A DNA stretch of 64,000 bases, from assembly GCA_965226495.1 (NCBI GenBank), contig OZ245365.1, forward strand, positions 5,529,783-5,593,782, given 5' to 3'. Below the pieces are notes generated by a model. The model saw nothing but the letters and a program-made list of their open reading frames with translations. It ran no database searches and was not told the origin of the DNA. This stretch comes from Candidatus Marinacidobacterales bacterium (GTDB lineage Bacteria; Acidobacteriota; Vicinamibacteria; Marinacidobacterales; DATDRI01). The position numbers and the translations under genes are program-made. Within the stretch, counting starts at the first letter, position 1, and the number at the start of each line of letters is the position of its first letter. Positions 8,536-33,628 of the stretch are shown in pieces.

Positions 8536-8539
8536 ACTA

Positions 8540-13566: not shown

Positions 13567-14085
13567 CTACACGCGATCCCGCCGGTAGCGGAAAAAGTCC
13601 TGCATCAGTTTTCGGCAGTCATGCTCGAGAACACCTGAAATAACTGCCAGCCGGTGAGGCACCCGGATGCTTTCTAGATCCACAATCGATTCCACGGCCC
13701 CAAACTTGGGCTCCTTCGCTCCGTAGACCAACGTGCTGACCCGCGCGTGAACGATGGCTCCGATACACATCAGGCACGGCTCCACCGTTACATAAAGCGT
13801 CAACCCCCGGAGTCGGTAATCCCCAAGCTCCTTTGCGGCGTGGCGAATCGCAACCAGCTCTGCGTGTGCGGTGGGGTCAACCGTGTGGATGGGCTGATTG
13901 AACCCGGTCGCAACAATCACCTCATCCTTAGTCAGGATGGCGCCAATCGGCACCTCTCCCAAGTGGAGTGCTTTGTGCGCCGCCTCCAGGGCGTGTCGCA
14001 TCAACTCTTCGTGGGTCCCGATTCCTAAGTCCTCAGCGACGACGTTTCGCCTCGCATCACGCCGCGCAAGCCACTCGTCGCACAC
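13567..14085 (-). CDS. tadA: tRNA-specific adenosine deaminase
   Basis: CMP/dCMP deaminase zinc motifs HAELVAIRHA and PCLMCIGAI. N-terminus ELMRHALEAAHKALHLGEVPIGA aligns with E. coli TadA. The exact start is uncertain (ATG 14085 or ATG 14001). Confidence 0.85.
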   Translation of the reverse strand: MCDEWLARRDARRNVVAEDLGIGTHEELMRHALEAAHKALHLGEVPIGAILTKDEVIVATGFNQPIHTVDPTAHAELVAIRHAAKELGDYRLRGLTLYVTVEPCLMCIGAIVHARVSTLVYGAKEPKFGAVESIVDLESIRVPHRLAVISGVLEHDCRKLMQDFFRYRRDRV

Positions 14086-14149
14086 ACATTATAATAGGAA
14101 CCGCCCGATTTCGCGCCCGATTGCCGCTTGAAATCCCAACTATCCGAAG

Positions 14150-14228
14150 TGCTAAAAATTTAGCAAATAAACTTGACGGGACCGCGGTCTCAGTGCTAGA
14201 TTTCCAGCATGATGCTGAAATATTAGCA
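14150..14228. promoter_or_regulatory. Three TGCT-N8-AGCA dyad sites (14150-14165, 14194-14209, 14213-14228) upstream of the blaI-like gene; putative repressor operators overlapping a TTGACG(14173)...TAGATT promoter
   Basis: TGCTAAAaaTTTAGCA is a perfect palindrome. TGCTagatttccAGCA and TGCTgaaatattAGCA share the same half-sites. They lie in the tadA/blaI divergent intergenic region; GAGGAGG RBS at 14241. Confidence 0.5.
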
Positions 14229-14256
14229 TGGCAGGAAGTCGAGGAGGCGAAACCAC

Positions 14257-14664
14257 GTGACCAAGAAACATTCGATGGGCGAAAAAGCGTATCTAAGCTT
14301 GAGCACTCGGGAACGGCAGATCATGGACTTGTTGTATCGCTTTGGCCAGTCTACCGCGGCCGAAGTGCAGGCCAACCTGCCCGATCCTCCGGGTTACTCG
14401 GCGGTGCGGGCAACGCTACGCATCCTGGAGGAAAAGGGACACGTTGGCCACGACCAGGACGGTCCGCGTTACGTCTTCACTCCTACCGTGGGGCAGGACA
14501 AGGCCAAGCGCTCTGCTATCCAACACCTTCTTCACACGTTCTTTAACGGATCGACCGAGCAGGCCGTCGCTACGCTCTTGGACGATTCCACCGCCGATCT
14601 CTCGTCCGAAGAGCTGAGCCGCCTCGCGAAGCTGATCGACAAGGCGCGCACGAAAGGAGCCTAG
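14257..14664 (+). CDS. BlaI/MecI/CopY-family transcriptional repressor
   Basis: Winged-helix N-terminus (LSTRERQIMDLLYRFGQSTAAEVQANL...SAVRATLRILEEKGHV) and C-terminal dimerisation helix. GTG start with RBS. 2-nt gap to the following M56 gene. Confidence 0.8.
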   Translation: MTKKHSMGEKAYLSLSTRERQIMDLLYRFGQSTAAEVQANLPDPPGYSAVRATLRILEEKGHVGHDQDGPRYVFTPTVGQDKAKRSAIQHLLHTFFNGSTEQAVATLLDDSTADLSSEELSRLAKLIDKARTKGA

Positions 14665-14666
14665 CC

Positions 14667-16775: not shown

Positions 16776-16935
16776 AGCGACGTCCGGGCCGAGGTCGTTG
16801 GCGCCCTCGGAATGCTCCAGGACCGACGAGCCCTCGACACCTTGACGCAAGCCATCAAGGACGAAGACCCGGGACGTCCGCGCACAGGCACTTTGGGCGA
16901 TCTCCATGTTGGCTCGTGGATCGGACGACGAGTGA
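16776..16935 (+). pseudogene. Decayed continuation of the HEAT-repeat array after an in-frame stop, with an extra G causing a frameshift
   Basis: After the TAA the same frame continues SDVRAEVVGALGMLQDRRALDTLTQAIKDEDPG, a further HEAT unit. Removing one G in CCGGGACGTCCG restores ...KDEDPDVRAQALWAISMLARGSDDE* ending at TGA 16933-16935. Confidence 0.55.
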
Positions 16936-17004
16936 CGACCGCGCGGCATAGCGTCCTCTGAGACACCGGCCAGCCGCCATGCCGGAAGTCGGGGCCGATG
17001 AAGC

Positions 17005-18408
17005 ATGAAGACGGCGCTTTTTTTCCTCCTCTCGTCGACGCTCGTTGCTGCCGCTGAGCAACCGCGAGTCAGCGCCTACGAGCTCGACGTCTCTTTTTTC
17101 CCGGACACGAGGTCGATGGAAGGCCTCGCTCTGATTCGCTTCGAGCCTACCGATAGCGCTCCGCCCACACTCACGTTCTACCTCCACGGCGAGCTCTCGG
17201 TAGACGCGGTTCATCTCGGCGAGGACTCGCTCGAAATAGAGCAGGACCAGGTGTTCTACGACTTCGACTACTCCCTGGTCGCAACCAGAGTCCGACTCGA
17301 GCTCGAAGGAAAGAACCTGGACCAGGGCCTCTCGATAACCTATTCGGGATTTTTCAACCCGTCGCAAGCTCGGTCACGCACCGACTACATGCGCATCGAC
17401 TCGGACGGTGTCTTTCTACGAGCCTATGGATACTCCCTCTGGTTCCCGACCTTCTTGGAAGCGCAACGAGACTCTTACCCGGTCTCCTTTTCCAAGGTCA
17501 TGCTCCGAACGCCGCCCGATTTCGAATCCGTTTTCGTGGGCCGCAAGCTCACAGAGCGCCAAGAGGACGGCCAACGAGTGACCGAATGGATCGCGGAGGG
17601 GATCAACTTGATCGACGCCCAATGTACGGCTCAGCGGTACTCCGTCACCGCTCACGGCGGCTACTTTCTTTATCATCATGATGACCAAGTGTCGCGGGCC
17701 GCGACAGAGCGCATCCTGCTTTTCGCGAAACAGCTGAACGGCTTCTACCAGAACGTATATAAGAAGGATGCGGATGCTCCCCAGTTCCATATTATGGATA
17801 TGCCCCGCTATGGCGACATCTCGAGCGGCAACGTAGTCGGGATCAACCGCGAGTTGTGGGTCGAGCTCGATGAAACCTCTTACCCCGCGCGAGTCCTCGC
17901 TCACGAGCTGGTTCATCCCTTGGTGCATGTTGATACGAATCGTGCCGACCCCTTGGCGGCTTTGGCGGTCGAAGGATTCCCTGCGTACTTCCACCTTCCG
18001 ATCATGGCGGAGTTTTTGGGCGAGGACTACTACCGGACGCACCTAAAGCGGACCGAGACGCGCTATCTAGAGAAAAAATCCTCGGGAACCGATCGTCGCG
18101 GACATCCGTTGCCCCAAGAGAAACCGCTTCTCGATATCGAGGAGGACGAGATCGGTGCCTACAAAGATCCCTTTCTTCTATCGGACCGGGCGCTCTTGTT
18201 CTTCGATTACCTCCGAAGACAAATGGGCCACGATTTGTTCTTCGCCTTCATCCGGACCCTTTTTAACCGCGAAAAGCTAGACTTGGCGACCTTCGAAGCC
18301 ACCGTACTCGATTACCTGCCCGGGACAAAAGGAGAACTCGATCTGTGGCTCAGGACGACCGATTACCCCGAACAGCTTCGACTAGATCACGGGGAAAGGA
18401 CCAGATGA
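17005..18408 (+). CDS. Secreted zinc metallopeptidase, gluzincin (HExxH-X18-E; M1-like)
   Basis: Signal peptide MKTALFFLLSSTLVAAA. HELVHPLVHVDTNRADPLAALAVEGFPAY gives HExxH plus Glu 18 residues after the second His. Stop overlaps the next gene start (ATGA). Confidence 0.65.
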   Translation: MKTALFFLLSSTLVAAAEQPRVSAYELDVSFFPDTRSMEGLALIRFEPTDSAPPTLTFYLHGELSVDAVHLGEDSLEIEQDQVFYDFDYSLVATRVRLELEGKNLDQGLSITYSGFFNPSQARSRTDYMRIDSDGVFLRAYGYSLWFPTFLEAQRDSYPVSFSKVMLRTPPDFESVFVGRKLTERQEDGQRVTEWIAEGINLIDAQCTAQRYSVTAHGGYFLYHHDDQVSRAATERILLFAKQLNGFYQNVYKKDADAPQFHIMDMPRYGDISSGNVVGINRELWVELDETSYPARVLAHELVHPLVHVDTNRADPLAALAVEGFPAYFHLPIMAEFLGEDYYRTHLKRTETRYLEKKSSGTDRRGHPLPQEKPLLDIEEDEIGAYKDPFLLSDRALLFFDYLRRQMGHDLFFAFIRTLFNREKLDLATFEATVLDYLPGTKGELDLWLRTTDYPEQLRLDHGERTR

Positions 18409-20801
18409 TGCAGACGTTCTTCCAAGACATTCGGTTCGGCTGTCGATCGCTGTGGAAACAACCCACCTTCACTGCCGTTGCGGTGATCACCATCGCCTTG
18501 GGCATTGGTGGCAACACGGCCATGTTCAGCGTGGTGAACGCGGTACTCCTCAAACCTTTCTCCTTCCAGGATCCGGAACAACTCGTTCGTGTCGAGAGCC
18601 GCAACTCCTATCCCGATGTGGCCGACTGGATCCAACAGTCTCGGACGGGAGAGAACTTCGGTGGATACGCGACGTTTTTTCTCGACCTGACCCAAGGGGA
18701 CGAGCCGGAGCGCATACCGGGTTCGGCGGTCACCGGAAGCCTCTTTCCGCTACTGGGCGTCAACCCCGCCCTAGGCCGAACACTCGAGCCCGATGACGAC
18801 GTTCCCGGCGGGGCACGTGTCATCCTTCTGAGCGACGGCTTCTGGAAAAGGCATCTGGGTAGCGATCCCGAGATCGTCGGCAAGCCTCTTTCCTTTAATG
18901 GAGATCAATACACGGTGGTGGGGGTCATGCCGATGGGGTTCCAGCTGCCTCTCAATCGTTCCGAGACTTGGGTACCGACTCGGGTGGTGATGCGGGAAGC
19001 CTCCGCGGCACGCGGGGCACACATGTTTCAAGCGGTGGGCCGTCTCAAGACAGACGTGAGCCTCGAACAGGCGCAGGCCGATATGGACAATATCGCAGCT
19101 CGTCTCGAGGAGCTCTACCCTGAGGAGAACCTCGACCGCCGTTTCATTCTCGCTCCGCTACAGGAGTACGTTGCTCGTGGAGCGAGACCCACGCTGGTGA
19201 TCCTTCTCGGCGCGGTCGGTTTTGTCTTGCTCATCGCTTGCGCGAATGTCGCCAACTTGCTGCTGGCGCGAGGGGCGGCGAGACAGCGTGAGATCGCCTT
19301 GCGCGCTGCGCTGGGCGCCGGACGCGCGCGGCTTTTCCGCCAGCTACTGACAGAGAGCGTACTTCTCTCGCTCGCCGGCGGAGCGCTCGCCGCGCCCTTA
19401 GCGTTCGCCATCGTGCGCGTCGTCGTGGCGCTCGGCTCGGAGAGCATCCCTAGACTCGACGAGATCGCACTAGACGGACACGTCTTGGGCTTCGCACTCG
19501 GGCTCTCCGTCCTCACCGGGATCGTGTTCGGACTCATTCCCGCCGCCCACGCCACAGTACCGCGCCTCTTCGATGCACTCAGGGAGGGTGGTCGAGCCTC
19601 GGGTAGCGTTTTGCCCCGCAGATTCCGCAGCGGACTCGTCGTTTCCGAGATGGCGTTGGCAGTCGTGTTGTTGATCGGGGCCGGCCTCTTGCTACGGAGT
19701 TTCTATCAACTACAGAACGTCGAGCCCGGGTTCGACCACGAAAAACTCTTAACGATGGAATTTTCTCTTCCCGCCAGCACCTATCGTGAGATACCCAAAA
19801 GAATTCTCTTCTATCAACGGCTACTCGAAGAGCTCGGCACCCTTCCTGGTGTCGAATCTGCGGCGGCGACCACCGAACTGCCGTTGGGAAGCAACTTCGT
19901 CCCTCACAACTTTGTGGTCGAGGGTAAACCCATGGATCCAGGAACCGAGCCCGAGATCTATTATCGCGGCATCAGCCCGGGCTACTTGGATACGATGGGC
20001 ATTCCGCTCCTTAAGGGTCGCCGCTTCACCGATCAAGACCGAGAGGGGGCCCCGAGCGTCGGCATCATTAATGAGGCCCTCGCTCGACAACTCTTCCCTG
20101 ATGAGGATCCCATCGGGCAAAGGTTCCGATGGGCGCGGCGGTCGGTCCTCTACTGGATCACCATCGTGGGTGTGGCAGGTGACGTGAGGCCCTTCGGGTT
20201 GGATGTCGCCGAGCAAGCGGCCGTCTACATACCATTCACGCAGGAGCGGGATTGGTGGCGAACGTGGATGCACGTTGTGCTCAGAACGACTACCGAGCCC
20301 ATGAGCTTGGCGCCGGCGATCAAGAGTCGCGTCGCGGAACTCGCCAAGACCATCCCGGTCGCCAACATCCGAGGCATGGAAGATCTCATGGCCGACTCGC
20401 TCGCCCCGCGCCGGGCACGATTTTGGTTGCTCGGAGGTTTCGCCGCGATCGCTATGCTCCTGGCCGCGGTTGGAATCTATGGCGTCCTCTCGTTCATGGT
20501 CGTGCAACGCACCAGCGAAATCGGCGTCCGCATGGCCCTGGGGGCGCGCCGGGCCGACGTCTTGAGAATGGTCATTGGCGAAGGAATGCTCTTGGCGATC
20601 GTCGGGATCGCCCTGGGAGTATTGGGAGCACTAGCTTTGACTGGAGTCATGTCGAGCCTTCTTTATGAAGTAAACGCCGCCGACCCGCTGACCTTCGTCA
20701 TCATCGCCGCCCTACTGACCGGTGTGGCTCTCGCCGCGAGCTTCGTGCCCGCCTTCCGGGCCACCCGAGTCGATCCCCTCACCGCACTCCATTACGAGTA
20801 A
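18405..20801 (+). CDS. ADOP-family duplicated ABC permease (MacB-like periplasmic domain plus two FtsX modules)
   Basis: Starts [49 protein letters not shown], the characteristic ADOP N-terminus. Two 4-TM FtsX-like blocks. The 4-bp overlap with the peptidase gene implies translational coupling. Confidence 0.85.
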   Translation: [798 protein letters not shown]

Positions 20802-20815
20802 GCTTCCCTTCCTTA

Positions 20816-20844
20816 TTGACAGCTAGAGTTCTGCCCTCTATCAT
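20816..20844 (+). promoter_or_regulatory. Near-consensus sigma70-type promoter TTGACA-N17-TATCAT
   Basis: TTGACA at 20816-20821, a 17-nt spacer, TATCAT at 20839-20844. It is followed by an unusually AT-rich tract (aatcaaatacaaaattcaaaccttttcagaattt) and a roughly 130-nt leader before the RBS/ATG at 20976. Confidence 0.5.
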
Positions 20845-20975
20845 GTAATCAAATACAAAATTCAAACCTTTTCAGAATTTCCTGCGGCGCACTGCGTATC
20901 GTTCGATGGTGATTCCGCCCTATCTTCCAAGACGGCGCACCACCGAAGTCTCATCACAACTAGAAGAGGAGTCCT

Positions 20976-21176
20976 ATGAATCAAGCGCGTGCCATTTGGG
21001 CGATGTTGACCGTCGCAGCGACTTACCTTAGTGTCACCGGAGCCTTCACGCTCCTGGCTTTTGTCGGCCTCGTCCCCTGGACCGAGGCCAGCGAGGTCGT
21101 CGAGGCCTTCTCCGCCTTGTCGAGCCTCGGCGTAGGCGGGGTTATTGGGCTCTATTTGGGCTCCGGTCCCTCTTAG
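20976..21176 (+). CDS. Small hypothetical 2-TM membrane protein (66 aa)
   Basis: AGGAG RBS 7 nt upstream of the ATG. High GC3. Two hydrophobic helices (AIWAMLTVAATYLSVTGAFTLLAFVGLV ... ALSSLGVGGVIGLYLG). The 3' end overlaps a convergent ORF. Confidence 0.35.
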   Translation: MNQARAIWAMLTVAATYLSVTGAFTLLAFVGLVPWTEASEVVEAFSALSSLGVGGVIGLYLGSGPS

Positions 21177-21507
21177 CACCCACCAGTAGCGACACGACAA
21201 AACAAAGCAAGATGAATCCGATCGTGATGATCGGTGGGTAGATGAAGTACGCGACGCTGATGGCTAGAAGAACCGTCGTGTAGCCGGCGTCCATCCAGGT
21301 CAATGTTCGAAGGAACTCATGATCGTCGCCTCGCGCTCGGACCACAACCAGGCTCAGCGATCCTGCGAAGACCAGACTTGCCGCGAAGATCAAGCTGTAC
21401 CCCTGCAGGAAATCCATCATCGAGCGCTCGATGCCGCCGAAGTCAAAGCGGTAGGTGGTCATCAGCGCGAGGGAGTGTCTCCTCGGTCTCGTTAGCGGGC
21501 TCGGCAC
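21142..21507 (-). CDS. Hypothetical membrane protein
   Basis: 121-aa ORF (possibly starting at the internal ATG 21462) with three hydrophobic helices. No recognisable domain. Convergent 35-bp overlap with the small ORF, so at most one of the two may be real. Confidence 0.3.
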   Translation of the reverse strand: MPSPLTRPRRHSLALMTTYRFDFGGIERSMMDFLQGYSLIFAASLVFAGSLSLVVVRARGDDHEFLRTLTWMDAGYTTVLLAISVAYFIYPPIITIGFILLCFVVSLLVGAKRDRSPNRAQ

Positions 21508-21605
21508 TGCTGAAGTGGCCGATCATATGAAGCCCCGCGGTTCACCAGCATCGCGTAAGCCCCCAGCTTGAACCAGAATGTGCTTTTCTTCATGTCGTAG
21601 CCCGC

Positions 21606-22397
21606 CTATTGGATCAGGTGCGTCGGCAAGGGTTCGCCGGTCTCGAGTAATGTCTTCAGGCTGTTGAGAAGGATGGGCCAACCGCCCGAGGTCTCCTTGT
21701 AGGTCCGGGACTCCCCGTCGAAATCATCATGGGTTACAGTGAGCTTCACGAGGTCGGTATCCCCGAAGCGCTCGATCTCGTACGAGGCGCGGGAAGGCTT
21801 GTCTCCGGTTTGTGGGAAGGAGAAGGTGTGAACGAGTTTCCTTCCTGGGTCGACTTCGAGAACCTTTCCCGTGACCGCCGCTACCCGCTCTCCCTTTTCG
21901 TCGTTCATAAAGTAATTCAGGGGCGAACCGGGCTCTAGGTCGGTTTCGATATCGGTGCCATAAAAGTACTGACGCGTCCGTTCGGGATTAACGAGCGCAT
22001 CCCAGACCTTATCGGGTGTCGAGCGGATGTAGAGAACATAAACCTGCTGCAGCTTGGTTTGGGTGGTCACGGTGTCCTCCTTTTCGAGCTCATCTTTCAA
22101 CGCCGTCAGCCTGGAAGCCCAGCGGGCGCTGTACTGCGACATCCACCGGTCGGAGATGGCCTGGATGGGGATCGCGTTGAGATAGAGCTCCTTGGTCTTG
22201 CCGTTCCGGCGCCGCACGATAAGCCCTGCGTCCTCCAGGACACGAAGGTGTTTGAGGACGGCGTACCGGGTGAAAAAGAAGTGAGAAGCAAGCTCGGAGA
22301 CGGTCATCCCGGGCTGATCTTTCACTAGATCGAGCATTAGCCGGCGATTGGAGTCGGCAAGTGCCCTAAACGTGCGGTCATCTGACATTTCTTTCAT
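21606..22397 (-). CDS. ArsR-family HTH regulator fused to SRPBCC (AHSA1/activator-of-Hsp90-ATPase-like) domain
   Basis: N-terminal RALADSNRRLMLDLVKDQPGMTVSELASHFFFTRYAVLKHLRVLEDAGLIVRRRNGKTKELYL is an ArsR HTH. The C-terminal roughly 150 aa has the SRPBCC fold pattern. Confidence 0.72.
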   Translation of the reverse strand: MKEMSDDRTFRALADSNRRLMLDLVKDQPGMTVSELASHFFFTRYAVLKHLRVLEDAGLIVRRRNGKTKELYLNAIPIQAISDRWMSQYSARWASRLTALKDELEKEDTVTTQTKLQQVYVLYIRSTPDKVWDALVNPERTRQYFYGTDIETDLEPGSPLNYFMNDEKGERVAAVTGKVLEVDPGRKLVHTFSFPQTGDKPSRASYEIERFGDTDLVKLTVTHDDFDGESRTYKETSGGWPILLNSLKTLLETGEPLPTHLIQ

Positions 22398-22468
22398 GTG
22401 AACAATAAGTCACTTTAAATATCAACGATCAGCAATATAGGTTCATTAGGTGCCTTTGTCAATATACT

Positions 22469-22486
22469 AGTGACTATTTAGTCACT
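22469..22486. promoter_or_regulatory. Perfect palindrome AGTGACT-attt-AGTCACT in an AT-rich divergent promoter region; further AGTCACT half-site at 22408-22414
   Basis: Read from the sequence. Located 72-90 bp upstream of the ArsR-family gene start (22397) and upstream of the TonB-receptor gene. Candidate autoregulatory operator. Confidence 0.5.
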
Positions 22487-22789
22487 TATTTGTAGTGTAG
22501 CGCCATGACTAATCGGCAACACCCAGACGCCCTCGAGATAGACGCCTACGAAACTCCAGATCGGAGATCCAAATGGTCGGATTTCGACTCCCCTTCGTCA
22601 CCGTAAACCTATGAATTCAAGCCCTCGGGCTATTGGCTCGCTTGTTGCATTATTGCAGCCGGTGTGGTTTGACAGGTCGACATCATGAGACCTATGCTTC
22701 GTCTACCAATGTCATCCCGGTCCATCTGCAATGTTCTGGAGTGGCCGGCGATTGTGCCGAATCTTCGCTTGGCGCGATAAGGAGCATTA

Positions 22790-23560
22790 ATGTCTAGAAA
22801 ACTTCCTTTGATTGCTAGCTTTCTCGCATTGTTTTCCCTGAGCGTGCCGGTGATGGCCCAGCGCACCACCGGGAACATCGTTGGAGTCGTGTCCGACGAG
22901 ACCGGCGCGATTTTGCCGGGAGTGACAGTCACGATAGCTGGTCAATACCTCATGGCTTCTCAAACCGCGACGTCCACCGCGTCCGGACGCTACCGGTTTC
23001 CCAACTTGCCGCCCGGTCCCTACACACTGACCTTCAGCCTCACCGGGTTCGCTTCCTTAACTCGCAGCGACCTGCGGTTGGAAACCGGCGCGACTCTCGA
23101 AGTGAACGTTGTGCTCAAGTTGAGCCAGGTCGCCGAGTCGGTCACCGTGACCGGAGAACAACCGGTCGTCGACGTACGTTCCTCCGAAATAAGCACCAAC
23201 TACGATCGCGAATGGGTAGAGAATGCTCCGCTTCCACGCTTCACCTTCTTCGACCTCATCAACGCGGCCCCGGGCATCAGCCAGAACGACTCACAGGACT
23301 CCCGATCCACCGCACTCGGCTCGGGAACAGACGAGAACTCCTATATGCTGGACGGCACAGATTTCACGTCCCCTTTTACCGGGGCCGCCTGGCCCTGGCC
23401 CAACACCGATGCCATCGCCGAAGTGGAGGTGCTGTCCTTAGGAGCTCCCGCCGAGTACGGCAACCTCTCCGGCGCTGTCTTCAACATCACCACTCGCCAG
23501 GGAAGTAACGACTTCCACGGGGATGTGAATTACTACTACCAATCCGAGGGCTTGACGGCT
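22790..23560 (+). pseudogene. TonB-dependent receptor, 5' fragment (signal peptide plus CarboxypepD_reg-like and plug start), interrupted by an IS
   Basis: MSRKLPLIASFLALFSLSVPVMAQRTTGNIVGVVSDETGAILPGVTVTI...FHGDVNYYYQSEGLTA, then IS sequence begins. The track ORF tail after 23560 is IS-derived. Confidence 0.75.
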
Positions 23561-24598
23561 TGTGACTTCAAGTTTGAAGCGCACCATTCGTTAGTTCCCA
23601 TGGAAACGTTCCTCCGGTGTGCGGTAACCGAGCCTCTTGCGGGGCCGTGTGTTGAGCTTCTTTGCGATACCATCGCAGTGGCGTTGCGTGAGCGCTGCTT
23701 GGCTGGTGCGCTTCGGCAGGTATTGTCGTAGCAATCCATTGAAGTTCTCGTTGCTGCCTCTCTCCCATGAGTGATAGGGAGTTGCAAAGTAGAACTTGAC
23801 GCCGGTCGCTTCCTCGACGGATTCGTAGTCGTGGAACTCCGTGCCATTGTCCGCGGTGATGGTCTTGACCTGATCCGGCACCCGCCGGAGCAACATCTTC
23901 GTTCGCTGGCTAGTGCCGAACATGCTGCGGTCGGACAGTTTGCCGATCAGCGCATAGCCCGTCTTTCGTTCCACGAGCGTGGTGACGCAGTCCGGCGCGT
24001 CTTTTCCTACCACGGTGTCAATCTCCCAGTGGCCAACGGCACGGCGCTTGTCGATACAAGACGGCCGCTCGGAGATGTGACGCTTCCCGGCCAGGCGGCC
24101 TCGGCTGTCGTAGCTGTTGTGGCGCTTGCGTCTAAGTTTGGGCGAGCATCGAAGGTGGCGGTATAGATGTCCTCCGGCCTCCTTGTCCCGCCAAACGTGG
24201 GTGTAGATCGTCTCGTGGCTGATCGAGAGCTCGCCGTGAAGGCGCAGGTGGCCGGAGATCTGCTCTGGGCTCCAGTCGGCCTTAAGCTTCTTCTCCACCA
24301 GGGCAAAGTCGGCCTTTGTGAAGTACTGGTTCCGGCGAGACCGCGAGCGTCGTCCGTTCGTTCTCTCGATGGCCTTGCTCGGCCGGTAGCATCCATCACT
24401 AGGTGAGCTGTTCCTCCTGACCTCTCTCGAGATGGTGCTCCGGTGGCGCCCCAGGCGCCGCGCGATCTCGGCCGAGCAAAATCCCTCCCGTCGCAGCGCC
24501 GCGATGGTGTAGCGTTCTTCCGAGGTGATCTGGTAATAAGTCATTAGCGAGTCCCCATTCTTGGTTGTTTGAGGAATCGTGGCACATTCCAGGTCACC
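23561..24598 (-). mobile_element. IS30-family insertion sequence (about 1.04 kb) inserted into the TonB-dependent receptor gene
   Basis: Single DDE transposase ORF flanked by imperfect terminal inverted repeats (left tGTGACttcaag...; right ...ccaGGTCACc). The host ORF resumes in frame after it. Boundaries are approximate to a few bp. Confidence 0.78.
23591..24544 (-). CDS. IS30-family transposase
   Basis: 317 aa. N-terminal HTH (YQITSEERYTIAALRREGFCSAEIARRLGRHRSTISRE) and C-terminal DDE integrase core (GHWEIDTV...ITADNGTEF...SWERGSNENFNGLLRQYLPK) typical of IS30. Confidence 0.85.
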   Translation of the reverse strand: MTYYQITSEERYTIAALRREGFCSAEIARRLGRHRSTISREVRRNSSPSDGCYRPSKAIERTNGRRSRSRRNQYFTKADFALVEKKLKADWSPEQISGHLRLHGELSISHETIYTHVWRDKEAGGHLYRHLRCSPKLRRKRHNSYDSRGRLAGKRHISERPSCIDKRRAVGHWEIDTVVGKDAPDCVTTLVERKTGYALIGKLSDRSMFGTSQRTKMLLRRVPDQVKTITADNGTEFHDYESVEEATGVKFYFATPYHSWERGSNENFNGLLRQYLPKRTSQAALTQRHCDGIAKKLNTRPRKRLGYRTPEERFHGN

Positions 24599-26621
24599 TC
24601 ATCCGGGAGCTGTGTTGCACTTACTTTATGAATTCGCGGCTAGTAACACCACTCCGGCGCAGGACGACGGCTTCCCCTTCAACCGCGACTTTTACAACGA
24701 CTTCACGGCGCAGGTCGGTGGACCGATCATAAAGGACAGGCTCTGGTTTTTCGGCTCCTACCAGCACCAAGAGGACTCCAGTACCCAGCCCGGCGTCAAT
24801 CCGGACTTCCCGACCCTGACCGAGAGCGACCGGATGTTCGTCAAGGTCAATTATCAAATTAATGACAACCACCGGCTGCTCTTCGCTCTCCATAACGACT
24901 GGTACTTTCTGCCAGGCGAACAAAATGCCAACACCGCTCCCACCACTGTGGGTGTAGAGTCCGGAAACAACCCGTCACCCAATCTGACGTACACCGGAAT
25001 ATTCTCGGCAAACACTCTCGTCGAGGCCCGCTTCTCGGGTTTCTACGGCACCGACCACGGAGACCCCATAGTGGAGGGAGAGCCCCGAGTAAAACCTCGC
25101 TTCTACAATCTCGATACGGGTCAGATTACGGGAGGGGTCTACTACTGGTACGACAGCAACGTTTTCAAGACCGGCGTTTCCGGCAAAGTCTCTCACTACG
25201 CCGATCAGTTTCTCGGAGGAAGCCACGACTTCAAGTTCGGCGCTCAGTACAGCCGGGGCGGTGTGGACAACGGCGCCTACGGTGCCAACGACTTCATCTA
25301 CACGTACGAGTACTACGGCGAGCCCTATGCCTATGGATACTCCTACGATGCCTTTGGCTACGGCGGCATCGCAGAAACCATTGGTGTCTTTGTCGATGAC
25401 AGCTGGGCGGTCAACGACCGACTCACGCTCAACCTAGGTCTTAGGTACGATCACAAAGTCGCCTCGGTCCCCGAGCTTTCCGTCCCTGACGCGGCCGGGA
25501 ACCTTACGGGTGCAACCTTCCCCGCGAGGGATCTCTACACGTGGGACACTATCTCACCCAGGCTGGGCTTCAACTTGAGACTGACCACGGATGGAAAAAC
25601 AGCCCTGAAGGGACATTGGGGTCGCTACTACCGGGGCATCGTGACCGGCGAGTTTGTCTACGAGCTCGGGTTGACACCCGCCTCGACTTTTGCCGGGTCC
25701 TATGATCTAGCCACACAGCAGTTCACAAGCCTAGAAGAGTTCGAGTCCAGTTTGAACAAGGGCGTGGATCCGGACTACTCCAACCCATACACCGATCAGT
25801 TCATTATTGGTTTCGAGAGAGAGCTCACCACCAATTGGGGGTTCTCCGCCAACTATGTTCACAAGCGGGGGAGGAACAACGCCGCCTGGAGCGCCACCGG
25901 TGAGTACGAGGAGATCACCTATATCGACGACCAAGGCACAGATGCCACCGGCAATCCCATCACGGTCTTGGCTCTGGTGAGTGATCCAGGCGACCGCTTC
26001 TTTACCATCGGCAATGACGACCGGATGTCGACCGACGTGAACGCCGTCACCATCACGCTCAGGAAACGGATGTCCGACCGCTGGCAAATGACCAACTCCC
26101 TGGTCTTCATGAAGACTAGCGGACGACTGCCTTCTAGTATCGACTCCTTCGGTCGTCAGAACGCTTCTCTCGTTTTCAGCGACTTCGGACAAAATCCCAA
26201 CGACTTCATCAATACGGACGGACGACTCGTCAACGACCGACCGGTGGAGTTCAAGACCTCGCTCGTCTACGAGTTCCCCTTCAACCTCATGCTCGCGGCC
26301 GGTTGGAGGCTTCAGAGCGGGAAGCCATGGGCGAGGACGGTTCGGCCCGAGGGAACCGGGCTCGTCACCGAGATCTTGGCAGAGCAGATTGACGGTAGTC
26401 GCCGCGTTTCCACGTGGAACCTCCTCGATCTGAGAGCGCAATATGCCATCGAGCTTGGCGGCGGAACGAATGTCGCGTTTTTCGGCGACGTTTTCAATCT
26501 GTTCAACGAAGACGCCAACGAGGAGGTCTTGAGCACGCTCGGCACGTCGGAAAGCTTTGACTTTCCTAGCTTCTTCGTGCTTCCACGCCGTTTGATGCTT
26601 GGCGCGAAGTTCCGCTTTTAG
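24599..26621 (+). pseudogene. TonB-dependent receptor, 3' fragment (beta-barrel, ends ...AKFRF)
   Basis: ...LLYEFAASNTTPAQDDGFPFNRDFYNDFTAQVGGPIIKDRLWFFGSYQHQ... through to a C-terminal aromatic residue, typical of an outer-membrane barrel. Continues the 22790 ORF in frame once the IS is removed. Confidence 0.75.
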
Positions 26622-26655
26622 AAGAAACACGACCGCACGTCGAGCTTTGCTCCTA

Positions 26656-26680
26656 CAAGGCCCCGGGGCTTTTTTTCGCC
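26656..26680 (+). terminator. Intrinsic terminator after the TonB-receptor gene
   Basis: aaGGCCCCGGGGCtttttttc: a GC palindrome followed by a T7 run, 35 nt past the stop. Confidence 0.6.
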
Positions 26681-26710
26681 CGATGGAGTGGACGGGAATC
26701 TAAGCCCATA

Positions 26711-28306
26711 ATGTCCGTTGCCATGGGTTTTACACCGAGCACCGCCTGTCTCCTTTTGCTTTTGCACGCGCCCGGTGCTTTTCCGCAAACCGTGAAGAAG
26801 TCCTTGGCTCAATTGGAACGACAAGGATTCGAAGCGCTCGGTCAAGGAAGATACGATAGCGCCCTTGACGCATTCGAGTTGCTTCTTGTCGTGAACCCCG
26901 ACCGCGCCTCTGCCCATTACGGCAAAGGGCTCGCACTCACGGGCATGCTGAACTACTCGGCTGCCGTCGACTCCCTCGAGAATGCCGCTTCGCTCGATCC
27001 GAATCGTGCCGAGACCTGGCGACGACTCGTGACGCTCTATTCCCAGCTTCAGCGCGACGAGAAGGCGAAGCGCGCTTTTGAGAACGCTCGAAGACTCGCG
27101 CCGGTGCCGGATGAGGAAAGGCTAGGCCTGGCGCGCGCCTTGAGAAAGACGGGATGGCTTAAGGAAGCCCATGCTTTGCTCCGCGAGGCAGAGCCTCTCG
27201 GTGCGGAAGAATATTTCGAGCTTGGCCTCCTCGCACTGGAGGAAGACGACTCAGGCCGGGCGGAAGCGCACTTCGAGAAAGCGACCGCGGACCCGATACG
27301 CTCCGCAGCGGAGGCGGAATACCAGTACGGACGGACGCTCGAGACTCTGGGTAAGCCTGAGCCGGCGATCCAGCACTACCGTCGGGCGCTATCCAAGGAT
27401 CAGCGCCTTTTGAGCGCTCGCTTCCGATTGGGGACTCTCTTGCTGCGTACGGGCGATGCCGAGCAAGGTCGGGCTTTGCTGCGCGGGTACGAAGAGTTGC
27501 GTCAATGGGATCGGAGGGTAAATCTCTTGCTCTCCATGGTGACATCCGGAACACTCTCCGACACTGCAGAGCGAGAAAAGAAGCTCGAGCTCGTGAATCT
27601 ATTTCTTCAAGCCGGTGCCTTCGAAGACGCAGGCGCACTCATCCACTCGGCACTGGCCAAGGACTCGAACGACCCCGCATTTCTCGTTGCCCAAGCGGAG
27701 TGGCTCCTTTCGTCGGGACAGCCGGATAAGTCACGGGTGGTTCTGGACACCTTGGTCTCAGTATCCAGCCCTCTTCCAGATGCGCTCTGGCTTTCCGGTC
27801 GGCTCCACATTATTGAAGGTGAACCGAAGCAAGCGCTCGAATCCTTCCAACGGCTCATCGCGATCGATCCCGATCCACCCGCCGCCCTCTTGAAGGAGGT
27901 CGCCACCGCCTACGCCATGAGCGGGCAAAGCAGTCAAGCCGAGACCTATTTTCACAGGGCTATTCAGAAAGATCCGCTGCTGGCGGGAGCCCAGGCGGGG
28001 CTCGGCGCGCTTCTAGAGTCCACAGGACGCCTCGAGGAAGCGGAGCAGCGCTATCGCCGCGCCCTCGAGATCAATCCCGATCTTCTTTCCGCACAACAGC
28101 TACTTGCCGAGCTTCTTCTGCGAAGAGGCGATGCAGAAGATGCGGTGACGCTATTGCGAAGGAGTGTAACCACGAACCCCGCGAACGCACTGCTCCGTCG
28201 CAACCTCGCTCGCGCTCTCGAGAGGGTCGGGAACATCGCAGAAGGGGAGGCGGAGCTGGAAAAGGCTCGAGAGATCGAAGCGCGGAAAAGCCCGCGCACG
28301 AAATGA
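26711..28306 (+). CDS. Secreted tetratricopeptide-repeat protein
   Basis: Signal peptide, then at least 10 TPR-like 34-aa units (AHYGKGLALTGMLNYSAAVDSLENAASLDPNRAETW...). Confidence 0.8.
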   Translation: MSVAMGFTPSTACLLLLLHAPGAFPQTVKKSLAQLERQGFEALGQGRYDSALDAFELLLVVNPDRASAHYGKGLALTGMLNYSAAVDSLENAASLDPNRAETWRRLVTLYSQLQRDEKAKRAFENARRLAPVPDEERLGLARALRKTGWLKEAHALLREAEPLGAEEYFELGLLALEEDDSGRAEAHFEKATADPIRSAAEAEYQYGRTLETLGKPEPAIQHYRRALSKDQRLLSARFRLGTLLLRTGDAEQGRALLRGYEELRQWDRRVNLLLSMVTSGTLSDTAEREKKLELVNLFLQAGAFEDAGALIHSALAKDSNDPAFLVAQAEWLLSSGQPDKSRVVLDTLVSVSSPLPDALWLSGRLHIIEGEPKQALESFQRLIAIDPDPPAALLKEVATAYAMSGQSSQAETYFHRAIQKDPLLAGAQAGLGALLESTGRLEEAEQRYRRALEINPDLLSAQQLLAELLLRRGDAEDAVTLLRRSVTTNPANALLRRNLARALERVGNIAEGEAELEKAREIEARKSPRTK

Positions 28307-28435
28307 AGACCGCTGTCCTAGGACTGCGTTATTCTGACCGCTTGAGAAAGGGGGTCAAAGCCTCTGAGTTACGGAGACTTAGGAGGGAGTTAGCATGCTA
28401 CACGCGGATTTTCCAAGAATCGCAGCGAACTCCGA

Positions 28436-29773
28436 GTGACGAGCTACCACGCCCCGCTCGCTTGGCTTGGCGGCCCATCGCTGGCGAGCAACGTCCTTTT
28501 CAGTGTCGAACATGGGCAAGTCACCAACATCCGAGCGGCTGCGGACCCGACCGAGGCATCCCGACTCGGCGGCATCGTCCTCCCCGGCTTGGTAAGCGCG
28601 CATTCGCATGCTTTCCACCGCGCACTTCGTGGGAAGACGCATGGTGAAGGTGGCGATTTCTGGGCCTGGCGAAACAAGATGTACGCAATGGCCAATCGGC
28701 TCAACCCGACCACTTACCGCCGCCTTGCGACCGAGGTGTTCGGCGAGATGCTGCGAGCCGGGATCACAGCAGTCGGCGAATTTCACTACCTCCACCATCA
28801 GCCCGACGGCGCTCCGTATGCTGTAAGGCATGCAATGGAACACGCTATCGTGGGAGCCGCCCGCGACAGCGGTATCCGCCTCACGTTGATCGACACGCGC
28901 TACCTGTCCTCCGACATCGACGGATCGCCCCCGTTGCCCGAGCAACGGCGCTTCTCCGATGGGACCGTGAACGACTGGGCTACGCGAGTACGAGAACTCG
29001 CCGAATCACTCGACACGCCGACAGTTCGACTCGGTGTGGCCGCCCACAGCGTGCGAGCCGTGCCGGCACCAGATCTTCCGAACGTCGCGGCCCTCGCCGA
29101 CGAGCTCGACGCGCCGGTCCATGTCCACATATCGGAGCAGCGCGCCGAGAACGCCGCGTGTCGCGCCGCGCATGGCACCAGTCCCACAGCGCTCCTTCGC
29201 GACACCGGAGTGCTGAACCAGCGTGCGACGGCCGTGCACGCAACTCACTTGGAGGAAAGCAACATCGCAATCTATGGGTCTTCCGGAGCAGGCGTCTGCT
29301 TGTGCCCGACGACCGAACGCGAGCTCGGCGACGGGATCGGCCCGGCCATCGAATTGCGTGACGCAGGCGTACGACTCAGTCTCGGGAGCGACAGCAACGC
29401 GGTCGTCGATCTGTTCGAAGAGGCACGCGCCTTGGAGTTAAACGACCGGCTCCGTCTCGAACGACGCGGGATTCATGCACCCGAGCATCTGATGACGGCC
29501 GCAACAAGCGGCGGGATGCGCGCGTTGGGATGGGGCGACTGGCGGCCGCTCTCGGTCGGCGCTCCTGCCGACTTCATCGTGCTCGACCCGAACGCTGCGG
29601 AACTTGCCGGGTTCGAAACGGCCGACGGTGTCGGCGGGCTGCTGTTCGCGGCAACGCCGAGGGCCGTCTCGGACGTGGTGGTGGCCGGAGAACAGGTCAT
29701 ACGCAATGGTGAAAACGTGGGAGGACAATCTCCAACCGGTCTGGCTGCGGCAATCTTGGCGGTGTCGTCATGA
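28436..29773 (+). CDS. hutF: Formimidoylglutamate deiminase
   Basis: GTG start. YHAPLAWLGG...NVLFSVEHGQVTNI and SAHSHAFHRALRG match HutF (amidohydrolase superfamily, about 450 aa). Confidence 0.82.
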   Translation: MTSYHAPLAWLGGPSLASNVLFSVEHGQVTNIRAAADPTEASRLGGIVLPGLVSAHSHAFHRALRGKTHGEGGDFWAWRNKMYAMANRLNPTTYRRLATEVFGEMLRAGITAVGEFHYLHHQPDGAPYAVRHAMEHAIVGAARDSGIRLTLIDTRYLSSDIDGSPPLPEQRRFSDGTVNDWATRVRELAESLDTPTVRLGVAAHSVRAVPAPDLPNVAALADELDAPVHVHISEQRAENAACRAAHGTSPTALLRDTGVLNQRATAVHATHLEESNIAIYGSSGAGVCLCPTTERELGDGIGPAIELRDAGVRLSLGSDSNAVVDLFEEARALELNDRLRLERRGIHAPEHLMTAATSGGMRALGWGDWRPLSVGAPADFIVLDPNAAELAGFETADGVGGLLFAATPRAVSDVVVAGEQVIRNGENVGGQSPTGLAAAILAVSS

Positions 29774-31002
29774 CAATCTCCGTTGACACCGTGATCGTCG
29801 ACGGGATCGTTGCAACCTTGCAATCCGGATCGGCTGGATCGGAGCCATACGGGCTGCTCAGCGACGCCGTCATAGGGATCACCGATGGCCGCATCAGCTA
29901 TCTCGGTCCGGAGGTCGGTGCCGAAACCAAGCAGCGTTGGTCCGTCGGCGGCCGGTTGATCACACCCGCCCTCATCGACTGTCACACCCACCTCGTCTTC
30001 GGAGGCGAACGCATCACCGAGTTCGAGCGACGACTCGGTGGCACCACTTACGAAGAGATTGCGAGTGCCGGCGGCGGCATCCTTTCGACAGTCACAGCCA
30101 CCAGAGCCGCGTCGAACGACGAACTTTTTGATTCCGGCGCTCGCCGCCTCCGCTGGCTACTACAGAGCGGTGTCGGCACGGTGGAGATCAAGTCGGGCTA
30201 CGGGCTGAATGCCCACCATGAGCTACGCATGCTGCGGGTGGCCCGACGTCTCGGCGACGCGTTGCCGGTGCGGATCGTGACGTCGCTCCTCGCGGCTCAC
30301 GCCATCCCTCCCGAACATCGAGCAGACCCGGACCGTTACATCTCCGAGATCTGCGAAGACATGATCCCGGCGGCGGCGGAAGAGGGATTGGCCGATTCTG
30401 TGGATGCGTATGGCGAACGGATTGCATTTACACCGGCACAGGTCCGCCGGGTCTTCGACGCGGCGCGCGACGCCAATCTAGCAGTGCGATTGCACGCCGA
30501 CCAGTTGAGCGATTCGGGCGGTGCCGCTTTGGCGGCCGAGTATGGCGCGTTGTCCGCGGATCACCTCGAACACACCTCCGATGCAGGCGTTGACGCGTTG
30601 GCGACTGCGGGCACGGTCGCGGTACTGATCCCAGGAGCGTCCGCCTTCCTGAACGAGGAAGCACGCCCACCGATCGCAAAGATGCGTCGCGCCGGCGTGC
30701 GGATCGCGGTCTCAACCGATCTCAACCCCGGGACCGCTCCATTCGGTTCCCTCCAAGAAGCGATGGCATTGGCCAGCGCTCGCTTCCGGCTGACACCTGA
30801 GGAAACGCTGGCCGGGACCACTCGACATGCGGCGGCCGCTCTCGGTTTGGGCGACACCGGGGTTATCCAGCCCGGCATGCGTGCCGACCTCACGGTTTGG
30901 GACGTGAAGTCGCCGGCGGCTTTGTCGTACTGGTCCGGGGCACCACTCTGCGCGGAGGTATGGATCAACGGAATCATCCACTATGAAAGAGACGAACCAT
31001 GA
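29770..31002 (+). CDS. hutI: Imidazolonepropionase
   Basis: LIDCHTHLVFGGERITEFERRLGGTTYEEIASAGGGI is the HutI signature. 4-bp ATGA overlap with hutF. Confidence 0.9.
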   Translation: MTISVDTVIVDGIVATLQSGSAGSEPYGLLSDAVIGITDGRISYLGPEVGAETKQRWSVGGRLITPALIDCHTHLVFGGERITEFERRLGGTTYEEIASAGGGILSTVTATRAASNDELFDSGARRLRWLLQSGVGTVEIKSGYGLNAHHELRMLRVARRLGDALPVRIVTSLLAAHAIPPEHRADPDRYISEICEDMIPAAAEEGLADSVDAYGERIAFTPAQVRRVFDAARDANLAVRLHADQLSDSGGAALAAEYGALSADHLEHTSDAGVDALATAGTVAVLIPGASAFLNEEARPPIAKMRRAGVRIAVSTDLNPGTAPFGSLQEAMALASARFRLTPEETLAGTTRHAAAALGLGDTGVIQPGMRADLTVWDVKSPAALSYWSGAPLCAEVWINGIIHYERDEP

Positions 31003-31580
31003 TCCGCCCCATTCCACAGATCGGCGACCCCATCCTGCGAACCGCCGCCACCGCCGTTACCCTCGAAGAGCTCCGTGGCGAGGAGACGCAGCAACTCATC
31101 GACGACATGATCGAAACGATGCGCCATGCCGAAGGTGCCGGAATCGCCGCCCAGCAAGTCGGCGTCCCGGTAAGAATCTGCATCCTCAGTGTGGAGCGGA
31201 ACGAGCGGTATCCCTACAAGCCACCGCTTCCCCTCACCGTGCTCGTCAACCCGGTGCTCGAGGTTCTCGAGGACGTCACCTTTCTCAACAACGAAGGCTG
31301 CTTGAGCGTGCCGCTACGTGGCGATCTCCATCGTTTCATGACCGTACGCGTCCGCTCCTTGGATCGGCATGGGGAGAAGTTCGAACAGACCTATCGCGGT
31401 TTGAGTGCCGGCAGCGTGCAACACGAGCTCGATCATCTCGACGGGCACCTCATCGTCGACCGGATCCACGACCCCACTACGTTCTCGACTTGGGACAACT
31501 TCAAGATGTACGGGTATGACGACTACATCCGGCGGATCCAGCCCGTGATCGAAAAGACCGAACCGCGATCGGAGAAGTGA
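30999..31580 (+). CDS. def: Peptide deformylase-family metallohydrolase (paralog embedded in the hut operon)
   Basis: All three PDF motifs are present: GAGIAAQQVGV, EGCLSVP, QHELDHLDG. 193 aa. 4-bp ATGA overlap with hutI. No fmt gene adjacent. Confidence 0.85.
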   Translation: MIRPIPQIGDPILRTAATAVTLEELRGEETQQLIDDMIETMRHAEGAGIAAQQVGVPVRICILSVERNERYPYKPPLPLTVLVNPVLEVLEDVTFLNNEGCLSVPLRGDLHRFMTVRVRSLDRHGEKFEQTYRGLSAGSVQHELDHLDGHLIVDRIHDPTTFSTWDNFKMYGYDDYIRRIQPVIEKTEPRSEK

Positions 31581-31615
31581 TAACCGGCATCGCCTCGCCG
31601 GCACTTTACCTAGAC

Positions 31616-32147
31616 CTACTTGCGGGCGGTCTCGGTATCCTTCTCAGCTTTTTCAGGTGCAGGATTTTCGGGCTCCGGAGGTGGACTCCAGAAGTTCGGG
31701 CTGCCTCCGGCCTTTGCGGCATGCTCACCATGGTAGAGAGCGCAGTTGAAGACGATGCGGAAGGTGCCAAACGATTGGCCTCGCCATTGCGGTCGAAAGC
31801 CAAGCAGGACGACGTGACCCTTGCCGTGGCGAACATCCAAAGCGGCAGCGAAACCGTTGATGTGCTCCTCACCTAGCAAGTAGCCCGACAGAAGGGGAGA
31901 GCCCGCCTCGCCAGGCCACCATCGCAATGAGTGTGGGTATCGATGAATCCGGGAGCGACGACCAAACTCTCAGCATCAATGATCTGGGCGGCCGTTTTCC
32001 CGGCCAGCTCCCCTATCTCGACGATGGTGTCTCCCATGATGCCGACGTCGCCTCGAAACCCGGAATCTCCGGAACCATCAACGTTCCGTTCGTTCTGATG
32101 AGGATGTCAAAATCTTCACCAGCGCTGACACAACCGAACGAGATCAA
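31616..32147 (-). pseudogene. Remnant of an N-acyl-D-amino-acid deacylase-like amidohydrolase (frameshifted, internally deleted)
   Basis: Minus-strand frames read (M)CVSAGEDFDILIRTNGT then a shift, then [53 protein letters not shown], the classic amidohydrolase N-terminus. It is followed by a stop and an unrelated about 100-aa ORF. It is far too short for the roughly 480-aa family. Confidence 0.5.
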
Positions 32148-32267
32148 AATGAGAATTAAGCTGCGTTCGGGCATGGTTCCCCTCGTGGCCCGGAACTGTA
32201 CCGACGGAAACGTAGCCCGGCAAGAGTAGAGCGCCCTGAACCACCGTGGGGAGATTCCTTTCCGAGT

Positions 32268-33140
32268 GTGTTACGCTCGCGCGAAATGCCAGTCTACAAC
32301 GGCACCGGCATGCTCAAGAAGGTCTTGCTCTGTCCGTCCACCTATTACGAGCTGGTTCCAGTCGACGACTACGCGCGAACCGCGCTCGAACGAGGCGACA
32401 AGGTCGACCACGAGAAGGCCGAGGCACAGCACAACGAACTAGTTGATATCTACCGAGATGCAGGGGTTGACGTCTTTTGGACCGAGGAGCCCGACCCCAC
32501 CCGCCACTACGCAGTCAACGCGCGGGATTTCGCCGTCAACTCTCCTGAAGGGTTCGTCATCTGTCGCTTCAAGTATTCGGAGCGCCGAGGAGAAGAGATT
32601 CCCGGCGAAAAACAATTACGGAAATTGGGCTACAACATTTTCGGACACATCGAGCGCGGTTGTTGGGAAGGCGGTGACAATAAGTACATCGACGACAAGA
32701 ATCTCGCCACCGGAACAGGGGAGCGAAGCACCTGGCCCGGTATTCACAACGCACAAGAGATATTCGCCAAACAAGGCATCAAGGTGCATGGCATTCCCTT
32801 CCCACCGAAATGGACTCATCTTGATTGTCTTTTCGCTCCCGTCGCCCCGAAGCTGGCTTTGATCGTGAAATCCGAGGTCCCCGACTGGTTCGTGGGATTT
32901 CTCGAAGGCCGAGAATGCGAGCTGGTAGACATCCCCGTAGAAAAAGCCGAAGGAGAGGTCGCCCTCAACGTATTGTGTCTTGGCAAGGATCGAGTTATCT
33001 CTTTCAAAGACAACACGTATATCAATGACATCTTGAAAGGCCTGGGGCTAACTGTCTACGCACCAGATCTAAGCGAGTACACCGAGCGCGGTCAGGGACC
33101 GCATTGCCTGACCTGCGAGCTCGATCGAGATCGGGAATAG
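32268..33140 (+). CDS. Amidinotransferase-superfamily enzyme (DDAH/arginine-deiminase-like fold)
   Basis: CWEGGDNKYIDDKNLATGTGERS (EGGD...G.SERT motif) and C-terminal GQGPHCLTCEL (GG.HC catalytic Cys). About 290 aa fits DDAH-size enzymes. Start is GTG 32268 or ATG 32286. Confidence 0.6.
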   Translation: MLRSREMPVYNGTGMLKKVLLCPSTYYELVPVDDYARTALERGDKVDHEKAEAQHNELVDIYRDAGVDVFWTEEPDPTRHYAVNARDFAVNSPEGFVICRFKYSERRGEEIPGEKQLRKLGYNIFGHIERGCWEGGDNKYIDDKNLATGTGERSTWPGIHNAQEIFAKQGIKVHGIPFPPKWTHLDCLFAPVAPKLALIVKSEVPDWFVGFLEGRECELVDIPVEKAEGEVALNVLCLGKDRVISFKDNTYINDILKGLGLTVYAPDLSEYTERGQGPHCLTCELDRDRE

Positions 33141-33215
33141 GCATGCTCGTCAGCTCGGGTCGTATCAACAATATTTATTTTGAAAAAGCCCGCTAGTGAA
33201 CGGGTAGGAGATGCC

Positions 33216-33568
33216 ATGAAGATCACTCTATTTCGACGCCTGGCTCTAACCGTTTTGTTACGGGGTGATGGGCGGCAGCATGCAACCAACAAGGCCACGT
33301 CCAGGTGCTCCTCAACATGATCGAGTTCGGGATGAATGTGCAGGAGGCGGGTGAGGCACCACGGTTCCGGCACTTCACCGGTCCAAACGTCGGCTTCGAA
33401 TCGGGGATCGACATCGAAGTGCTGCAGGAGCTCATCCGAAAGGGTCATCGGCCCATGACGCGCATGGGAGTCTATGGCGGATACCAAGCCATCCGGATTG
33501 ATTGGGAAACCGGCGTCCTCATCGGAGGCTCCGATCCCCGCAAGGACGGGGCCGCCATGGGTTATTGA
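33216..33568 (+). pseudogene. ggt: gamma-Glutamyltranspeptidase remnant: signal-peptide-like start plus only the last about 90 aa of the small subunit
   Basis: 33305-33568 encodes (Q)VLLNMIEFGMNVQEAGEAPRFRHF...GGYQAIRIDWETGVLIGGSDPRKDGAAMGY*, which matches the GGT C-terminus (…LQMVVNSIDYGMNVAEATNAPRFHHQW...GASDPRSVDDLTAGY). 33216 encodes MKITLFRRLALTVLL in another frame. The N-terminal 400+ aa are missing. Confidence 0.7.
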
Positions 33569-33628
33569 GCTGAATCAGGGGAGGTGCAGTTCAACCGCAG
33601 TTTGTGTCGGGGCCGAGTCGAAGGAGAC

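Follow-up and report, generated by a model that had tools for sequence, protein, structure and literature searches.

The DNA studied here is a stretch of 64,000 nucleotides (the window) from contig OZ245365.1, which belongs to an assembly of the order 'Candidatus Marinacidobacterales' (Acidobacteriota, class Vicinamibacteria). It carries a receptor gene of 916 codons, probably encoding a TonB-dependent outer membrane protein, that is split into two parts. The gene has almost certainly been struck by an active insertion sequence (IS) of the IS30 family that is 1,078 bp long and ends in imperfect 26-bp repeats. Such an insertion alone is a routine event. The same gene is broken in different ways in near-identical sister assemblies, and the locus is a candidate for parallel gene loss in a marine, uncultured lineage of Acidobacteriota. 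A search of the literature for 'Marinacidobacter' returned no match.

Limits of the element and its empty site

The element occupies positions 23561 to 24638 of the window and is oriented on the minus strand. Its left end at 23561, TGTGACTTCAAG…, and its right end at 24638, …TGAATTCGCG, were set by aligning 10 identical copies with more than 12 copies that are ~96% identical. The identical copies (loci L082-L091) match the window over exactly this span and are unrelated outside it. In relatives at 65-88% nucleotide identity, homology ends at the same two limits. When read in the orientation of its transposase, the element starts with CGCGAATTCATAAAGTAAGTGCAACA and finishes with …TGGTGCGCTTCAAACTTGAAGTCACA. 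The terminal inverted repeat at the transposase 5' end (IRL) lies at 24613-24638, where the minus strand reads CGCGAATTCATAAAGTAAGTGCAACA, and the repeat at the 3' end (IRR) lies at 23561-23586, where the plus strand reads TGTGACTTCAAGTTTGAAGCGCACCA. Both are assigned, like the element, to the minus strand.

The two repeats agree at 15 of 26 positions, a degree of similarity that a random 26-mer from the window reaches with a probability of ~2e-4. They are too imperfect for an ungapped repeat finder, which missed them, and were defined from the copy alignment instead. Diverged relatives share two blocks within them, GAnTTCA and GAAsyGCAAC. The original prediction, made from the letters of the window, described an element of roughly 1.04 kb with imperfect terminal repeats. 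It was right about the nature of the repeats and about the left end, and it underestimated the length. The right repeat that it proposed, '…ccaGGTCACc' (~24589-24598, with GGTCACC at ~24592-24598), is located 40 bp inside the element, since all copies run on to 24638.

The element is flanked by a 3-bp target-site duplication, GCT, with one copy at 23558-23560, where it forms codon A257 of the receptor gene, and the other at 24639-24641. Matching 3-bp duplications also border 9 of the 10 listed identical copies (8 of 9 distinct sites). The site as it exists without the insertion is observed directly in three sister assemblies (L093, L094 and L095), which were reached via the neighbouring regulator gene and whose flanks are 99.9-100% identical to the window. 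These assemblies read …GACGGCTAGTAAC… with a single GCT (extracts …ACGGCTAGTAAC…, …CTTGACGGCTAGTAACACC… and …TACTACCAATCCGAGGGCTTGACGGCTAGTAACACCACTCC…), which is exactly the window sequence minus the IS and one GCT. JGI metagenomes yielded no exact match to the empty site. The repeat ends and the target duplication could therefore be defined from copy alignment and an observed empty site, as had been anticipated.

At four places (L004, L010, L090 and L106), the 3-bp sequences on the two sides of the IS differ, as might result if copies had recombined with each other or if rearrangements had occurred next to them.

The interrupted receptor gene and the age of the insertion

The 5' part of the receptor gene, codons 1-257, extends from 22790 to 23560 on the plus strand, and the 3' part, codons 258-916 and the stop codon (26619-26621), extends from 24642 to 26621 on the same strand. 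As originally described, the open reading frame (ORF) that begins at 22790 has a CarboxypepD_reg domain at its N-terminus (77 bits) and is interrupted after …YYYQSEGLTA, the final residue of which is A257 (gct at 23558-23560). Beyond this codon the frame reads 56 codons of the IS and stops at 23731. The N-terminus resembles a signal peptide, MSRKLPLIASFLALFSLSVPVMA with cleavage before Q, as judged by eye and not by a signal-peptide predictor. The 3' part encodes a β-barrel that matches OMP_b-brl_4 (PF25183, cut-off 30 bits) with 131 bits, rising to 153.9 bits on the restored receptor. It ends, again as described, in FRF; the full terminus read from the sequence is …AKFRF, with the C-terminal aromatic residue present.

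The receptor frame was also expected to resume directly after the element. This holds for the element as now delimited, because the frame picks up at 24642 behind the second GCT, and not behind GGTCACC. A longer ORF of 680 amino acids, which starts at 24579 inside the IS, devotes its first 21 codons to IS sequence and the duplicated GCT. Neither receptor half in the window contains an additional stop or frameshift.

When the halves are rejoined, the resulting protein of 916 amino acids can be aligned gap-free through the junction with intact homologues of 913-941 amino acids at 54-60% identity (51-60% over 96-100% of the length in the wider set of such receptors). Invariant residues flank the junction, L255 and T256 before it and N259 and T260 after it. 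This alignment, together with the contiguous halves in three assemblies, establishes that the two parts are one gene. The homologues are Vicinamibacteria receptors that share with the restored protein a CarboxypepD_reg domain, a weak Plug match, an OMP_b-brl_4 barrel and a C-terminal F. Some of them are named 'TonB-dependent receptor' by NCBI, and several close ones have a precomputed Plug match. Unlike these homologues, the window copy is interrupted. Sequence searches detected no solved structures for the receptor.

The IS belongs to a set of highly similar copies. At least 10 others match it at 100% identity along the full 1,078 bp. The exact transposase sequence occurs on 69 contigs; the 10 places returned represent 9 distinct sites because L086 and L088 are the same one. 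One of these copies (L091) shares an ENA contig with the window locus, at a distance of ~50 kb that puts it just beyond the window end; within the window, neither blastn nor tblastn finds a second copy. In a scan of one genome per species, many copies with ~96% nucleotide identity were found in three 'Candidatus Marinacidobacterales' genomes, and relatives at 65-88% identity are spread over several phyla. The insertion in the receptor gene is recent, as is evident from its presence or absence among near-identical sister assemblies and from the identity of its copies. The element is probably active at present. Both points agree with the original suggestion of a recent and possibly active IS.

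Two rival readings of the locus were weighed. One supposes an assembly artefact, or two paralogous fragments that were brought together around a repeat. The IS is multi-copy, and repeats are prone to mis-joins. This reading is refuted by the homologue alignment and the empty sites, and its probability is negligible. The flanks carry a perfect 3-bp duplication, removal of the IS and one GCT yields the sequence of three other assemblies, and the halves are collinear with single intact homologues and do not come from different paralogs. In addition, four assemblies contain the insertion: the 6.3-Mb contig of the window, ctg123690, ctg257099l and a Logan contig whose end lies 28 bp inside the IS. 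The other reading, that the IS is an old, fixed and inactive relic, is very improbable. Related genomes do harbor ~96%-identical and truncated copies, and no IRR-IRL junction was found in 104 loci. A relic would not be expected to have an intact ORF with intact catalytic residues, 100% nucleotide identity to at least 10 other copies, and a polymorphic distribution among near-identical genomes.

The preferred explanation, a hit by an active IS30-family element, can be spelled out by analogy with IS30, for which a copy-out/paste-in route and a short target duplication have been described (PMC9333248). The element would move by such a route via a circular form with joined ends. The target would be attacked with a 3-bp stagger, and repair would create the GCT duplication. 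The insertion cuts off the barrel (codons 258-916) from codons 1-257, which specify the signal peptide, the N-terminal domain and the plug region, and it leaves the barrel part without promoter, start codon or signal peptide. With its halves separated and its barrel deprived of a signal peptide, the receptor presumably cannot be made.

Several observations weigh against parts of this explanation. The loss of receptor function is deduced from topology. The joined ends expected of a minicircle or tandem dimer (…GAAGTCACA-NNN-CGCGAATTC…) would form an IRR-N(0-10)-IRL junction; none occurs in 104 loci, although such junctions are hard to catch in assembled contigs, and ongoing transposition is thus not seen directly. 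In the source genome itself, the only second copy observed is the one on the same contig. The label 'TonB-dependent' leans on homologue names and on weak Pfam matches: Plug (PF07715) scores 20.5-22.8 bits at residues 151-225, below its cut-off of 23.9, and TonB_dep_Rec_b-barrel (PF00593) scores 23.8 bits on the restored receptor, below its cut-off of 27.

In practical terms, the ORFs of 313, 317 and 668/680 amino acids annotated here represent one broken receptor gene and one IS. The 313- and 668-amino acid products deserve to be marked as pseudogene fragments. The element itself, with its exact ends, could be deposited as a new IS30-family member.

Family relationships and target motif

IS30-family elements are ~1-1.25 kb in length, have a single ORF, are bounded by imperfect terminal inverted repeats of 20-30 bp and duplicate 2-3 bp of their target. 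The element fits this description with an intact transposase gene for 317 amino acids at 23591-24544 on the minus strand, which fills 954 of its 1,078 bp. The original prediction of an intact IS30-type DDE transposase is borne out by a match to transpos_IS30 (NCBIfam NF033563) that scores 290.7 bits (cut-off 80) and spans the entire profile, positions 1-267 of 267. A helix-turn-helix is recognized at the N-terminus (HTH_38, 57.3 bits at residues 4-45; HTH_23, 33.8 bits), and a match to rve (31.5 bits) falls slightly under its cut-off of 32.6. The catalytic residues are in place and are retained among 22 relatives (D176 in 21, D232 and E266 in all 22). Their spacing, D176-(55)-D232-(33)-E266, fits the IS30-family motif D-(54-61)-D-(33)-E (PMC2516522) and so supports membership in this family. 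By sequence, the element is assigned as a new, unnamed member of a known family.

Its closest named transposases in the plasmid collection are those of ISVa6 and ISVvu6 (Vibrio and Photobacterium), with 54-55% amino acid identity over full-length alignments. These come from a different phylum, and the identity is far under what ISfinder practice requires for counting two elements as one IS. Among known phage and plasmid DNA, the only relative is a 90-bp stretch with ~80% nucleotide identity to ISVa6-like elements.

IS30 of Escherichia coli, the type element of the family, likewise has one long ORF, whose product carries an N-terminal helix-turn-helix and a DDE triad in which 33 residues separate the second D from the E. 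Its terminal repeats are also imperfect and ~26 bp long, its target duplication is short, and its target preference is marked. However, the element duplicates 3 bp, whereas IS30 duplicates 2 bp (PMC9333248). The natural hot spots of IS30 are nearly palindromic, while the motif described below is confined to the IRL side. 'Typical' IS30-family elements such as IS1655 (Neisseria meningitidis) and ISLxc3 and ISLxx5 (Leifsonia) have repeats that open with three non-complementary bases and contain an inner …TTGCAACA block (PMC2516522). The window element is similar in both respects, with CGC versus TGT as the first three bases and inner blocks GTGCAACA and GCGCACCA, although its nucleotide sequence is unrelated to theirs. 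Its size, single ORF and 3-bp duplication agree with such 'typical' elements as well. No conserved target was found for ISLxc3 (PMC2516522), in contrast to the element studied here.

Insertion sites of this subgroup share a target motif. At 17 independent sites of the close family, the IRL side carries cCGtcCGC-N10-TGTTagg-NNN, and no conserved motif is found on the opposite side of these sites. The TGTT at positions -10 to -7 is present in 12 of the 17, compared to a background of 0.2% (P ~5e-29). Fifteen relatives from other phyla have the same motif, and the consensus of all 32 independent sites is GTCCGCT.CAA....TTGTTAGGC... It can be written as GTCCGCT-N-CAA-N4-TTGTTAGG-NNN, or in short as …TTGTTAGG-NNN, where the 3-bp duplication follows TTGTTAGG and insertion is in one orientation. 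In the window the motif corresponds to 24642-24664 on the minus strand, that is, to positions -4 to -26 in transposase orientation. Its TGTT is the reverse complement of sequence in the receptor codons AAC ACC (24645-24648), which encode the conserved residues N259-T260, so the motif must be part of the target and not of the element.

These patterns suggest that the subgroup inserts in one orientation beside a one-sided motif conserved across phyla, a testable property of this group of IS30 transposases. The window site itself scores 2.8 in a leave-one-out calculation, within the top 0.25% of window positions. Motif preference was rejected as the reason why the receptor gene in particular was hit, because 311 positions in 63 kb of window sequence score equally well or better. 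'Pseudo-IR targeting' was also considered and is not supported. Whatever the offset, the 32-site matrix gives the element's own IRR and reverse-complemented IRL no more than background scores (best -7.2, compared to a null mean of -17.4 with standard deviation 7.1). The motif thus scores unlike the element's own ends, and targeting of terminal repeats in the manner of IS30 is not demonstrated for it.

In four loci (L089, L001, L003 and L006), the flank around the IS copy is the same, with a Transposase_mut gene on one side and an rve_3 fragment on the other. This arrangement is a nested insertion in another mobile element that recurs across several genomes. The nested copies at L001 and L006 are ~25 kb apart on one contig and have opposite orientations.

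Other lesions at the receptor locus

Sister assemblies that are otherwise collinear with the window (99.99-100% identical over 1-15381, 15607-22789, 26622-34306 and 29542-51239) carry different damage in the receptor gene. In L093 and L094, an IS256-family element of ~1.39 kb, which encodes a Transposase_mut protein of 416 amino acids (261 bits), interrupts the gene at the position equivalent to 22951-22958 and is bordered by an 8-bp duplication, CATGGCTT. In L097 (ERZ28669063), a deletion of 4,980 bp (21143-26122) with a blunt junction that lacks microhomology removes most of the receptor gene together with the adjacent regulator gene. A further assembly, L104 (ERZ21829562), has the IS30 insertion plus a 72-bp deletion at 24976-25047. 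The empty-site assembly L095 contains a truncated IS256-like insert near 25712 that is 88% identical and ridden with indels. This last case was discarded as a firm independent event, since one end of the insert is missing and receptor-like sequence is mixed into part of it, as if different reads had been collapsed into one consensus.

The allele with the IS256-family element has two additional changes. A G-to-T substitution at 25445 converts Arg to Ser in the conserved receptor segment LGLRYD, and a 4-bp deletion (27327-27330) shifts the frame of the downstream TPR gene (26711-28306). Both would fit a locus that is decaying as a whole.

An intact receptor allele was not found in a collection of 15 billion proteins. 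The only match above 60% identity to the receptor is its own C-terminal fragment, and the 90% cluster of that fragment holds nothing but fragments, of 668, 862, 538 and 516 amino acids.

Three firm and independent first hits in a gene of 2.75 kb, namely the IS30 insertion, the IS256-family insertion and the 4.98-kb deletion, suggest either that loss of the receptor has been selected or that the gene is dispensable in an IS-rich genome. The comparisons made here do not separate the two. Dispensability, with a neutral IS30 insertion in a genome that gathers ISs and pseudogenes under relaxed selection, is given an even chance. Related contigs are crowded with elements of the IS30, IS256, IS481 and IS630-like families, alleles that were already broken have acquired secondary lesions, and the target motif is frequent enough that the IS30 hit needs no special explanation. 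What relaxed selection accounts for less readily is the concentration of damage. At least three independent first hits fell in this one gene, while ~50 neighbouring genes in the same assemblies are undisrupted save for the TPR frameshift. With the one structural difference seen in ~100 kb as a rough guide to the background rate, only ~0.02 such events would be expected per lineage.

The same concentration makes it possible, though we hold this more tentatively, that at least three independent knock-outs in populations of ~100% identity reflect parallel selected loss, in which absence of the receptor is advantageous, for example, as an escape from phage or toxin entry. TonB-dependent receptors are classic entry points for phages and colicins. 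The variety of lesions across near-identical collinear assemblies (including the noisy insert near 25712), the absence of an intact allele from the protein collection, and the paucity of structural differences elsewhere all point in this direction. On the other hand, a dispensable gene that decays neutrally in a genome rich in ISs gives the same qualitative picture, and the changes that followed inactivation (the 72-bp deletion on the IS30 allele, and the Arg-to-Ser substitution and TPR frameshift on the IS256 allele) are marks of decay and not of selection. The L095 allele belongs to a low-quality consensus, and some of the sister assemblies may share a sample. If loss of the receptor has indeed been selected, such an event could be read straight from metagenome assemblies of an uncultured organism. 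In either case, the presence or absence of the IS and the alternative lesions in near-identical assemblies make the locus a ready marker for tracking strains.

Divergently oriented from the receptor gene is a gene at 21606-22397 (minus strand) for an ArsR/MarR-type helix-turn-helix fused to an AHSA1/SRPBCC domain, which could possibly act as a ligand-sensing regulator of the receptor. It is unbroken in all alleles except the 4.98-kb deletion. A sigma-70-like promoter candidate, TTGACA-18-TATGCT, precedes the receptor gene at 22669-22698 on the plus strand. It was recognized by a consensus scan (10 of 12 matches), and such sites are no more numerous in this region than in shuffled sequences.

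An ENA contig of the same locus (L092) has two 1-bp indels relative to the window, at 17253 and 20050. These are probably consensus errors; they break a MacB/FtsX-type gene into calls of 592 and 200 amino acids, versus 797 amino acids elsewhere. Beyond the receptor, regulator and TPR genes, pairwise comparison over ~100 kb reveals one structural difference, an integrase island, absent from the window, at the tRNA-Ser(CGA) gene (13407-13502, minus strand) in L101 (ERZ25071132; L101 positions 915-1976). This assembly is the same as the window up to 13419, within the 3' end of the tRNA, and then continues into a tyrosine-integrase gene.

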